Source: Escherichia coli (GTDB taxonomy: Bacteria > Pseudomonadota > Gammaproteobacteria > Enterobacterales > Enterobacteriaceae). Taken from it: a stretch of 64,000 bases of DNA. Positions 48,917 through 52,527 of this stretch are shown piece after piece (the stretch's first letter is position 1; each line of letters begins with the position of its first letter). The notes beneath the pieces were generated by a model that was not told where the DNA came from, ran no database searches, and saw nothing but the letters and a program-made list of their open reading frames with translations. The DNA lies in the NCBI RefSeq assembly GCF_009931435.1, contig NZ_CP043414.1; one strand, given 5' to 3'. Both the position numbers and the translations under genes were made by a program.

Positions 48917-48932
48917 TGTTAGTATTCTAACA
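48917..48932. promoter_or_regulatory. DeoR operator-like palindrome upstream of deoC
   Basis: TGTTAGTATTCTAACA, near-match to the DeoR 16-bp palindrome, 45 bp upstream of the deoC start. Confidence 0.65.
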
Positions 48933-49129
48933 TCGACTCCGCAACACACTTCGATATACATCACAATTAAGGAAATCTACTTACAAAATTGCATTACTGT
49001 AATGCGATCTGGTTCAAATAATTCACTTTCAAATGAATGCGTCAGTGGTGGCAAACGCATCAGGATCAAAGTGAACATCACGAAACTTCTTACAATGGCG
49101 CATCACCTTCGGCATAAAAGGAACAGAAG

Positions 49130-50680
49130 ATGCCCACTTCTCATGAAAATGCACTGCAACAACGTTGCCAGCAAATTGTCACCAGCCCGGTACTTAGCCC
49201 GGAGCAGAAACGCCATTTTCTGGCGCTGGAAGCAGAAAACAATCTGCCTTACCCGGCGTTGCCTGCCGAAGCCCGCCGCGCGCTGGATGAAGGTGTAATC
49301 TGCGATATGTTTGAAGGTCATGCGCCGTATAAACCGCGCTATGTCTTACCCGATTACGCCCGTTTTTTGGCCAACGGTTCCGAATGGCTGGAGCTGGAAG
49401 GCGCAAAAGATCTTGATGACGCACTCTCTCTGCTGACCATTCTTTACCACCACGTTCCTTCGGTCACATCGATGCCGGTCTACCTGGGGCAACTGGATGC
49501 GTTGTTGCAACCGTATGTTAGAATTCTAACACAAAACGAGATCGATATTCGAATAAAACGTTTCTGGCGTTACCTCGACAGAACCCTGCCAGACGCCTTT
49601 ATGCACGCCAATATTGGCCCGTCTGATTCACCCATTACCCGTGCGATTTTACGCGCAGACGCAGAGCTGAAGCAGGTTTCACCGAACCTGACTTTTATCT
49701 ACGATCCTGAAATCACCCCTGATGACCTGCTGCTGGAAGTGGCGAAAAACATCTGTGAATGTAGCAAACCGCACATCGCCAACGGTCCCGTGCATGATAA
49801 AATTTTCACAAAAGGGAGCTACGGGATTGTGAGCTGTTACAACTCACTGCCGCTGGCGGGTGGTGGCAGTACGCTGGTACGCCTCAACCTGAAAGCCATT
49901 GCCGAGCGCAGCGAATCGCTGGATGACTTCTTTACGCGCACTCTACCGCACTACTGCCAACAGCAGATCGCCATCATCGATGCGCGGTGTGAATTCCTCT
50001 ATCAACAATCACACTTCTTTGAGAATAGCTTCCTGGTGAAAGAAGGGCTGATTAACCCTGAACGTTTTGTGCCAATGTTTGGCATGTACGGACTGGCAGA
50101 AGCGGTTAACTTGTTGTGTGAGAAAGAAGGAATTGCCGCACGTTACGGTAAAGAAGCCGCTGCGAATGAAGTGGGTTATCGCATTAGCGCGCAACTGGCG
50201 GAGTTTGTCGCCAATACCCCCGTGAAATATGGCTGGCAAAATCGCGCCATGCTACACGCACAGTCGGGGATAAGTTCCGATATCGGCACCACGCCGGGCG
50301 CGCGTTTGCCGTATGGCGATGAGCCAGATCCGATCACCCATCTGCAAACTGTCGCCCCGCATCATGCTTATTATTATTCCGGCATCAGCGACATTTTGAC
50401 GCTCGACGAAACCATCAAACGTAATCCGCAGGCGCTGGTACAGCTTTGCCTCGGTGCCTTTAAAGCCGGAATGCGTGAATTTACCGCCAATGTCAGCGGT
50501 AACGATCTGGTTCGCGTTACCGGTTATATGGTGCGTTTGTCGGATTTAGAAAAATATCGTGCCGAAGGTTCACGTACCAATACCACCTGGCTGGGAGAAG
50601 AAGCCGCACGCAACACTCGTATTCTGGAACGCCAGCCGCGCGTGATAAGCCATGAACAGCAGATGCGCTTTAGTCAGTAA
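49130..50680 (+). CDS. yjjI: glycyl-radical-enzyme-like protein YjjI
   Basis: 516 aa; C-terminal glycyl-radical-type motif LVRVTGYMV; followed by its cognate radical-SAM activase. Confidence 0.9.
49505..49520. promoter_or_regulatory. DeoR operator palindrome located inside the yjjI coding region
   Basis: Perfect 16-bp palindrome TGTTAGAATTCTAACA, 588 bp from the deoC-proximal site. Confidence 0.65.
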
Positions 50681-51515
50681 GATTATCCCCTTCTCCTGCG
50701 TTGACGGGCCAGGCAGTCGTCTGGCTCTGTTTTTACAGGGCTGCAATCTGCGCTGCAAAAACTGTCACAATCCGTGGACGATGGGGCGCTGTAATGATTG
50801 CGGTAAGTGCGTGCCACAGTGTCCGCATCAGGCGTTGCAGATTATTAACAGCAAAGTAGTGTGGAACGCAGCCGTCTGCGAGCAGTGTGATACCTGTCTG
50901 AAGATGTGTCCGCAACATGCCACGCCGATGGCGCAATCCATGAGCGTGGATGAGGTGCTTAGACATATCCGCAAAGCGGTGCTGTTTATCGAAGGGATAA
51001 CGGTAAGCGGCGGCGAAGCCACGACCCAGCTGCCGTTTGTGGTGGCGCTTTTTACTGCCATCAAAAACGATCCGCAACTGTGCCATCTCACCTGTCTGGT
51101 GGACAGTAACGGCATGTTGAGAGAAACCGGCTGGGAAAAATTGCTCCCGGTGTGCGACGGCGCGATGCTCGATCTCAAAGCGTGGGGAAGCGAATGTCAT
51201 CAGCAGCTAACCGGACGCGATAATCAGCAGATCAAGCGCAGCATTAGTCTGCTTGCCGAGCGCGGCAAACTGGCAGAACTGCGTTTGCTGGTAATCCCAG
51301 GCCATGTGGATTATTTGCAGCATATCGATGAGCTGGCGGCGTTTATCAAGGGACTTGGCGATGTTCCGGTACGCCTGAACGCGTTTCATGCTCACGGCGT
51401 GTATGGCGAGGCGCAAAGCTGGGCGAGCGCCACGCCGGAAGACGTTAAGCAATTGGCTGATGCGTTACGGGAGCACGGGGTGAGCCGATTAATATTTCCG
51501 GCGCTGTATTTGTGA
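50652..51515 (+). CDS. yjjW: glycyl-radical enzyme activating enzyme (radical SAM) YjjW
   Basis: 287 aa; CNLRCKNC (CxxxCxxC) radical-SAM cluster motif plus ferredoxin-like Cys clusters ([24 protein letters not shown]). Confidence 0.9.
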
Positions 51516-51740
51516 CATGGCGGATGCAGCCTACGGTTCGGCACAGACCTGTAGGCATGATAAGACGCGTCAGCGTCGCATCAGGCATTGTGCGCCAACT
51601 GCCGGATGCGGCGTGAACGCCTTATCCGGCCTACGGTTCGGCACAGACTTGTAGGCATGATAAGACGCGTCAGCGTCGCATCAGGCATTGTGCGCCGACT
51701 GCCGGATGCGGTGTGAACGCCTTATCCGGCTTACGAAGGG
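51516..51740. repeat. BIME cluster with two tandem 100-bp REP-containing units
   Basis: Unit cctacggttcggcacagac(c/t)tgtaggcatgataagacgcgtcagcgtcgcatcaggcattgtgcgcc(a/g)actgccggatgcgg(c/t)gtgaacgccttatccgg repeated at 51531-51630 and 51631-51730. Confidence 0.9.
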
Positions 51741-51744
51741 CAGA

Positions 51745-52527
51745 CTACCCACGAACGTTAAACACCGCATACGTGTTATTAAGCAACACTTCGGCAATCT
51801 CATCCGCGGGTTCCGGGCGTAACTCGCACAGCACGGCAAACACACGGGCGGCCTGTTCAGGGCGATTAGGCTGCCCCTGAAAACCATTGAGCGGCATATC
51901 CGGTGCGTCGGTTTCCAACAACAACGATGCCAACGGTAATTTTGCGATGACATCGCGGGTTTTACTGGCGCGTGGATAGGTGATAGTACCGCCTACGCCA
52001 ATTTTGTAGCCCAGCTGCACAAACCGTTCGGCCTGTTGCTGGCTGCCAGAAAAACCATGAACCACACCAGTGCGTGGCAAATTTTGGCGTTTAAGATGCA
52101 TCGCCAGTTTGTCGTGCGTGCGCCGTGAATGAAGGATCACCGGCAGATCGTAGCGTTTCGCCAGTTTCAGTTGTTCATCAAGCAACCTCTGCTGCCTCTC
52201 AAATTGCGGATCGTCACCAAAGAGATCCAGGCCGATCTCCCCCACCGCCACCACCTTCGTCGGACGTCTTTCCAACGCCTGCTGTAATTGATCCAGCGAT
52301 GCATCGTTATGTTTTTCCAACATCCCCGGATGCAACCCTAAAGCGGCATACAGTGGTTGATAATTTTCCGCTAACGCCTGCACACGGGCAAAATTTGCCG
52401 CCTCGGTGGCCGGAACAATGATCTTGCCTACGCCCGCTTGTGCCGCGCGTTGCAGGCTGGCCTCTTCATCGCCACTAAACGGCGGGAAATCAAAATGGCA
52501 GTGGGTGTCGATAAAACGGCAAATCAA
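51745..52527 (-). CDS. yjjV: TatD-family metal-dependent hydrolase YjjV
   Basis: 260 aa MICRFIDTHCHFDFPPFSGDEEASLQRAAQAGVGKIIVPA. Confidence 0.92.
   Translation of the reverse strand: MICRFIDTHCHFDFPPFSGDEEASLQRAAQAGVGKIIVPATEAANFARVQALAENYQPLYAALGLHPGMLEKHNDASLDQLQQALERRPTKVVAVGEIGLDLFGDDPQFERQQRLLDEQLKLAKRYDLPVILHSRRTHDKLAMHLKRQNLPRTGVVHGFSGSQQQAERFVQLGYKIGVGGTITYPRASKTRDVIAKLPLASLLLETDAPDMPLNGFQGQPNRPEQAARVFAVLCELRPEPADEIAEVLLNNTYAVFNVRG

Follow-up and report, generated by a model that had tools for sequence, protein, structure and literature searches.

Which reaction is carried out by the YjjI-YjjW pair of Escherichia coli? The pair lies in a window of 64,000 nucleotides, the whole stretch of DNA that was analyzed, taken from E. 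coli contig NZ_CP043414.1 (assembly GCF_009931435.1). The two genes, named yjjI and yjjW in RefSeq, are predicted to encode a glycyl radical enzyme (GRE) and its radical S-adenosylmethionine (SAM) activating enzyme. GREs typically perform chemically difficult anaerobic steps that are relevant in the gut, e.g., the breakdown of choline, hydroxyproline, and sulfonates. The roles of PflB, TdcE, NrdD, and GrcA are long established, and YjjI appears to be the last E. coli GRE without an assigned reaction.

The answer proposed here, which is held tentatively and a little short of an even judgement, is that YjjI is an anaerobic radical enzyme induced by FNR. It would catalyze an elimination, not a reduction, and would act on the ribosyl moiety of a nucleoside or on a pentose phosphate that stems from one. 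From the gene pair, its neighbors, and its closest relatives, we infer that a radical is formed, that the substrate is a nucleoside or pentose, and that the chemistry is an elimination.

The predicted glycyl radical enzyme and its activase

The yjjI gene (49130..50680, plus strand) encodes the predicted catalytic GRE of 516 amino acids, and yjjW (50652..51515, plus strand) encodes the predicted radical-SAM activating enzyme of 287 amino acids. YjjI matches PF11230, "Glycyl radical enzyme YjjI-like", with an E-value of 3e-220 and 732 bits (cut-off 23), and NCBIfam TIGR04040 with 789 bits (curated cut-off 498). PF11230 is the sole Pfam family matched, and by sequence it is a separate family. The family is small; 542 clusters at 50% identity reach E 0.001 in a search of 1.84 billion representatives, and many of these are fragments. 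YjjW matches TIGR04041, "YjjW family glycine radical enzyme activase", with 398 bits (cut-off 250). It also matches Radical_SAM (PF04055), Fer4_12, and several 4Fe-4S ferredoxin families, with the Fer4, Fer4_7, and Fer4_9 matches spanning residues 44-90. The gene pair, the family, and its GRE nature are already catalogued in PF11230, TIGR04040, and TIGR04041, and the entity is known.

A first-pass annotation of the window, made from the sequence alone, had described the pair as part of the conserved core. Indeed, of 5426 complete E. coli genomes, 5422 carry it, with coverage of at least 80% of the query. The window locus shares 98.6% identity with the best-matching E. coli genomes and 95-99% with most. 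Its YjjI is 97-99% identical to that of E. coli, E. albertii, E. whittamii, and a cryptic Escherichia sp. (loci L001-L005). Its YjjW shares 98% identity with that of E. coli TUM9812 (L001), but identity drops to 92-94% in the other four of these loci (L002-L005). From L006 onward, among more distant Enterobacterales, YjjW is the less conserved of the two proteins, e.g., 70% versus 88% for YjjI.

The same annotation had pointed to a C-terminal glycyl-radical-type motif, VRVTGYM, in YjjI. This glycine loop occupies residues 461-467 (50510..50530, plus strand), and both R462 and the putative radical site, G465, are invariant in alignments of 22 and 71 diverse homologues. A second loop, S235-C236-Y237-N238 (49832..49843, plus strand), contains the presumed thiyl-radical cysteine. 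C236 is the only cysteine conserved in all 71 homologues, and S235 and N238 are each at least 95% conserved in the 71-sequence alignment. Other conserved polar residues are R70, Y71, D123, D150, H159, N186, K213, N218, R251, E305, H376, Q378, D384, and R392. At position 58, 87% of members have Cys, and the others have His, Asp, or Tyr.

A confident AlphaFold2 model, computed from the alignment, has a mean predicted local distance difference test (pLDDT) score of 91.9 and a predicted template modeling (pTM) score of 0.91. In this model, C236 is at the tip of the beta-hairpin E231-234/E238-241, and the G465 loop is the tip of the hairpin E460-463/E466-469. Two hairpin-tip loops, one with Cys and one with Gly, are the hallmark arrangement of GREs. 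YjjI also has the ten-stranded alpha/beta barrel fold common to ribonucleotide reductase (RNR). Other features of the GRE superfamily are present as well: an RVxG[FWY] glycine loop, a conserved central finger-loop Cys, and an adjoining cognate radical-SAM activase.

YjjW was said to combine a CxxxCxxC cluster with two ferredoxin-like Cys clusters, and its translation contains all three. The CX3CX2C motif (C31, C35, and C38 in CNLRCKNC; 50742..50765, plus strand) would hold the SAM-cleaving [4Fe-4S] cluster. Two ferredoxin-type CX2CX2CX3CP motifs (C47-P58 and C76-P87; 50790..50912, plus strand) would hold auxiliary clusters. A GGE SAM-binding motif is also present, and the best PDB relative of YjjW is PflA (5e-20).

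The activase gene adjoins yjjI at every Enterobacterales locus that is not truncated, and among the 50 dereplicated distant groups it does so in 45. This agrees with its earlier description as a dedicated activase. It usually overlaps the enzyme gene. The adjacency is kept even in an archaeal contig (L082), where the flanking genes encode eIF-1A and eIF-2-beta (eIF-5/eIF-2B family). In the window, the start of yjjW overlaps the end of yjjI, as first noticed, by 29 nt (50652..50680, plus strand). Because this overlap is kept in nearly all Enterobacterales loci, and because the two genes overlap by 4-11 nt in several distant loci, translational coupling of yjjI and yjjW is supported and can be presumed. 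Judged by these sequence features, YjjI and YjjW are very probably an active GRE and its activase.

Nucleoside genes around YjjI

Gene context was suggested by the first-pass annotation as a check on the pair, and a survey of it reveals a recurrent nucleoside gene neighborhood. Enterobacterales synteny was taken from a scan of genome contigs, in which the closest 80 loci are all from Enterobacterales. Distant context was taken from a metagenome contig scan with a non-enterobacterial alignment, in which the 80 loci closest to one Firmicutes-like query were kept. Together with contigs from exact-protein look-ups, these loci form 50 groups at 80% YjjI identity. Among the named hosts of close relatives are Clostridium spp., Lachnospiraceae, Fusobacterium, Breznakia, and Bacillus.

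In Enterobacteriaceae and Hafniaceae, yjjI-yjjW is always divergent from deoCABD. Outside Enterobacterales, 38 groups have at least 4 kb of flank; in 16 of these, a nucleoside transport or catabolism gene lies within 5 kb of yjjI, and the two often belong to one operon. Among 122 co-directional, closely spaced neighbors, the commonest Pfam families are ABC_tran (13), BPD_transp_2 (12), and Bmp/PnrA (11), which together are the components of a nucleoside ABC importer. The next commonest are PNP_UDP_1, IU_nuc_hydro, and PfkB. No second recurrent functional theme was found among the surveyed YjjI loci.

Individual loci illustrate the association, and their genes are named here in the order in which they lie. 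L173 is composed of genes for PNP, Bmp, YjjI, the activase, NupA, NupB, NupC, DeoC, adenosine deaminase, and phosphopentomutase. L154 contains YjjI, the activase, NupABC, cytidine deaminase, and phosphopentomutase, and L113 contains Bmp, YjjI, NupABC, a PfkB kinase, and pseudouridine-5'-phosphate glycosidase. The order at L092 is IUNH, ADP-ribosylglycohydrolase, PfkB, PNP, a sulfatase-like protein, YjjI, the activase, an MFS transporter, and Bmp. At L088, adenosine deaminase and PfkB precede the activase and YjjI. In Bacillus sp. B15-48 (L178), a Crp/Fnr regulator and NupC precede YjjI, the activase, pyrimidine nucleoside phosphorylase, and phosphopentomutase.

Nucleoside importers, and enzymes that release the base together with (deoxy)ribose phosphate, are the only functional signal in the survey. 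The association is seen both in Firmicutes-like contigs and in a Bacillus, and the deo synteny of Enterobacterales agrees with it. For these reasons, a role of YjjI in anaerobic nucleoside or pentose catabolism is the side toward which the judgement leans. The association with nucleoside operons was not found stated in the literature searched, and as a functional lead it is new and testable.

Several points weigh against this role and against an elimination. Proteus and Providencia keep the pair without deo; their neighbors are smp, serB, radA, and nadR (Proteus), an amino-acid permease, and PagP. In over half of the surveyed loci, the pair stands alone amid unrelated housekeeping genes. Recurrent nucleoside neighbors were not found in Proteus, Providencia, L182, L179, L177, L094, L089, or the archaeal contig L082. 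The 50 groups are not phylogenetically independent, because the 80 metagenome loci are those closest to one Firmicutes-like query. GRE 1,2-eliminases have a general-base Glu two residues after the Cys (Cys-x-Glu), whereas this position is Asn238 in YjjI (C236-Y237-N238). To our knowledge, the known catabolism of nucleosides needs no radical enzyme. Neither a functional study nor a substrate for YjjI or YjjW was found in the literature searched, in line with the first-pass annotation; the matches are expression and chromatin immunoprecipitation (ChIP) data and one computational guess, "nitrogen metabolism".

An active GRE with a substrate unrelated to nucleosides, e.g., a small polar metabolite, would account for some of these points. 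The association would then reflect lineage-specific gene order, in line with the lack of informative neighbors at most loci and with a sampling biased towards relatives of one query. However, the nucleoside link recurs with several kinds of transporter (Bmp-ABC, NupC, and MFS), with different glycosidic-bond enzymes (PNP, Pdp, IUNH, and PsuG), and in different gene orders. It is also found in Clostridia-like metagenome contigs, a Bacillus, and Enterobacterales. An unrelated substrate is therefore regarded as unlikely, though it is a serious possibility.

Two further features of the neighborhoods were recorded. A PfkB and Indigoidine_A (pseudouridine-5'-phosphate glycosidase) pair is located inside the YjjI operon of L113 (8277-10095). 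In Clostridium estertheticum (L177, 3820-5825), a PfkB and pseudouridine-glycosidase pair is located ~3 kb from yjjI, which is too loose to count. These pairs make pseudouridine a candidate substrate source. In E. coli, yjjV (51745-52527, minus strand), which encodes a TatD-family hydrolase, is convergent to yjjW. At L173, a TatD_DNase gene (2392-3177) is likewise present, a few genes ahead of the nucleoside operon that contains YjjI. The TatD neighbors may be a coincidence or a link to nucleic-acid scavenging. Recurrent adjacency to an RNR was considered and rejected, as the large genes upstream encode FtsK, CarB, an AddA-like helicase, and similar proteins, and a class II RNR is present only at L125.

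Relatives of YjjI and the candidate reaction

YjjI is a minimal GRE barrel that is nearest to NrdD and is without the defining catalytic features of NrdD, pyruvate formate-lyase (PFL), and the GRE eliminases. A sequence search of YjjI against PDB chains gives nothing below E 0.88, and the family profile gives weak matches to PFL, YbiW, and NrdD. In structural comparison, the closest solved structures are class III RNRs, followed by PflD (28.0), IslA (26.9), CutC (26.3), PFL (25.9), and others. An hhalign comparison of the YjjI family with E. coli NrdD gives an E-value of 2.7e-6 over YjjI 17-439 and NrdD 120-624, where VRLNLKAIA is paired with ISLNLPRIA and LHAQSG with LYSTPS. The NRDD model PF13597 does not match YjjI at E 0.01; faint or weak precomputed matches are seen in many relatives.

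The structural and hhalign kinship with class III RNRs, together with the nucleoside-related gene context, could be taken to mean that YjjI is a minimal ribonucleotide or ribonucleoside reductase. Such an enzyme would provide a second anaerobic route to deoxyribose compounds, with formate or another external reductant. L125 has its class II RNR directly upstream of yjjI, an adjacency seen only once, and C58 could in principle serve as a second redox residue. However, the replacement of C58 by His, Asp, or Tyr in some members argues for an acid/base rather than a redox role.

The reductive apparatus of NrdD has little counterpart in YjjI. NrdD has 712 amino acids in E. coli, and YjjI has ~200 residues fewer. 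The alignment begins at NrdD residue 120, and YjjI has no counterpart of the N-terminal ATP cone and no ATP-cone match. NrdD C175 is the bottom-face cysteine of the reductive half-reaction. It falls opposite a gap after the invariant R70-Y71 of YjjI, and no second universal Cys was found in the 71 homologues. The four-Cys zinc site of NrdD is also missing, since YjjI has no conserved Cys columns after residue 236. The Cys loop reads M-G-C in E. coli NrdD and V-S-C in YjjI, which thus lacks the Met two positions ahead of the Cys. Unlike NrdG, YjjW has two extra ferredoxin-type clusters, and its best matches are GRE activase models other than NrdG. Moreover, E. coli already has nrdDG. A reductase is hence an improbable assignment.

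An older annotation, "putative pyruvate formate-lyase", would make YjjI a C-C lyase acting on a 2-keto acid and its nucleoside neighborhood a coincidence. The family-profile match to PFL does set the glycine loop opposite RVSGY and S235-C236 opposite the adjacent Cys pair, which is C418-C419 in the published numbering, with C236 opposite C419. However, the catalytic Cys-Cys pair that PFL (PflB/TdcE) requires is Ser235-Cys236 in YjjI and is lacking in all 71 homologues. YjjI is also ~240 residues shorter (516 versus 759 amino acids), which upholds the first-pass description of it as much shorter than PFL-type enzymes. The PFL-like domain PF02901 has no match in YjjI at E <= 0.01 and only faint or weak precomputed matches in relatives. 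Acyl-CoA, formate, and acetate genes are absent from the 25 most recurrent operonic-neighbor families. A PFL-like lyase is thus very improbable.

YjjI has ~250-300 residues fewer than the GRE 1,2-eliminases, i.e., YbiW, PflD, CutC, the glycerol/propanediol and hydroxyproline dehydratases, and IslA. Its placement nearest to class III RNR, with the reductive apparatus lost, was not found stated in the literature searched.

Without an ATP cone, a bottom-face Cys, or conserved C-terminal cysteines, only non-reductive chemistry is proposed for YjjI. The alternatives at position 58 (Cys, His, Asp, and Tyr) are all protic. Given an NrdD-like scaffold with no reducing cysteine and a protic residue 58, a non-reductive 1,2-elimination is the most economical chemistry.

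In the proposed mechanism, yjjI-yjjW is a two-protein glycyl-radical system that would be made only under anaerobiosis. YjjW, with a SAM-cleaving [4Fe-4S] cluster on C31/C35/C38 and two auxiliary ferredoxin-type clusters, would reductively cleave SAM. The 5'-deoxyadenosyl radical would then abstract hydrogen at Gly465 of YjjI and leave a stable glycyl radical there. This would generate a thiyl radical on Cys236, which would abstract a hydrogen atom from the substrate. Of RNR-like chemistry, YjjI would carry out the non-reductive part alone, as a radical 1,2-elimination on a ribofuranosyl substrate with loss of water or with C-O or C-N cleavage. The substrate would be a nucleoside that the neighboring transporters import, or (deoxy)ribose phosphate once it has been released from that nucleoside, and the product would feed a deo-type catabolic route.

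An analogy for this step may be found in YbiW and PflD, which were recently reported to cleave 1,5-anhydroglucitol-6-phosphate and 1,5-anhydromannitol-6-phosphate by ring C-O cleavage (PMC12441222). The RNR-like elimination on the ribosyl ring is a conjecture from such comparisons and is itself quite doubtful. The same degree of doubt applies to YjjI as the founding member of a catabolic branch of the RNR lineage that would use hydrogen abstraction and elimination on imported nucleosides or pentose phosphates.

Control of yjjI and deo elements inside the gene

The spacer between deoC and yjjI is 258 bp and was aligned across 13 genera. It contains the elements of the deoP2 promoter. The DeoR operator O2 (48917-48932) is conserved across genera. 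CRP-1 (48950-48965) reads, as its reverse complement, TGTGATGTATATCGAA, which is the CRP ChIP-seq site reported for yjjI/deoC in enterotoxigenic E. coli (ETEC) (PMC4287617). The CytR-like repeat (48988-49008) and CRP-2 (49003-49018) are also conserved. CRP-1, the CytR-like repeat, and CRP-2 take up most of the spacer.

Between the deoP2 sites and the yjjI ATG, the only blocks conserved across the 13 genera are GGATCAA (49063-49069) and TACAAT (49091-49096), which are 21 nt apart. The first is part of a putative FNR-like half-site (49056-49069, plus strand; CGCATCAGGATCAA), and the second, by its conservation, is the probable -10 element of a yjjI promoter on the plus strand. Since the 21-nt spacing fits, the sequence suggests a class II FNR promoter in which one half-site is good. 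A full FNR palindrome, TTGAT-N4-ATCAA with up to two mismatches, was not found upstream of yjjI. The sole intergenic match to the palindrome (48951-48964) was rejected because it is the CRP-1 site of deoP2. A generic sigma-70 scan found no promoter in the deoC-yjjI intergenic region.

Published expression data are consistent with such a promoter. FNR ChIP occupancy and FNR-dependent anaerobic induction have been reported for yjjI (PMC3688515), and both yjjI and yjjW are FNR-activated (PMC2634741). In Yersinia intermedia, anaerobic induction is 4.3-fold for yjjI and 2.1-fold for yjjW (PMC3792023).

A part for YjjI in anaerobic nitrogen-oxide metabolism (nitrate, nitrite, or nitric oxide stress), suggested by an E. 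coli/Salmonella bicluster with narGHJI and with FNR and NarL-like motifs (PMC3228777, 2011) and by the FNR activation of yjjI, is as remote as a PFL-like lyase, since any FNR-dependent anaerobic gene would show such co-expression and no nitrate, nitrite, or nitric oxide family is among the 25 commonest of the 122 neighbors or at the individually annotated loci.

Elements of deo control extend into yjjI itself. A perfect DeoR operator, O1 (49516-49531; TGTTAGAATTCTAACA), occupies codons 129-134 (YVRILT), and its distance to O2 is exactly 599 bp. All deo-adjacent genomes examined have O1 at +386 of yjjI, whereas Proteus and Providencia lack it. Another 279 bp into the gene is OE (49795-49810; TGATAAAATTTTCACA), a weaker site that resembles an operator. 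The putative yjjI promoter is flanked by O1 and O2, and control of yjjI by DeoR looping is therefore also possible. CRP-2 might serve both promoters, as its center is ~93 bp upstream of the deoP2 start and likewise of the putative yjjI start, which would be near 49103-49104. A CRP-like site (49453-49468; CGTTCCTTCGGTCACA) inside yjjI matches a CRP ChIP-seq peak reported within the gene in ETEC. The presence of the deo upstream regulatory region inside yjjI was not found stated in the literature searched.

Rfam has no match in or upstream of yjjI, and only naRNA4 matches derived from repetitive extragenic palindromes (REP) are found downstream of yjjW. Here, two tandem copies of a ~100-bp unit of the REP/bacterial interspersed mosaic element (BIME) type (51554-51631 and 51654-51731) fill the yjjW-yjjV spacer. 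They match naRNA4 on the minus strand with 79 and 71 bits. These repeats account for the ~36 matches that the query has per E. coli genome.

Together, the placement near RNR, the association with nucleoside operons, and the deo region inside yjjI make an old orphan directly testable. The gene-context survey narrows the candidate substrates to roughly a dozen nucleosides and pentose phosphates, which are commercially available and each open to direct assay. If the proposal is correct, an RNR-like elimination would show that the RNR scaffold has been reused for catabolism. Gut and sediment bacteria would then have a previously unrecognized anaerobic way to use nucleoside carbon, and a reaction would be assigned to the GRE that seems to be the last orphan in E. 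coli.

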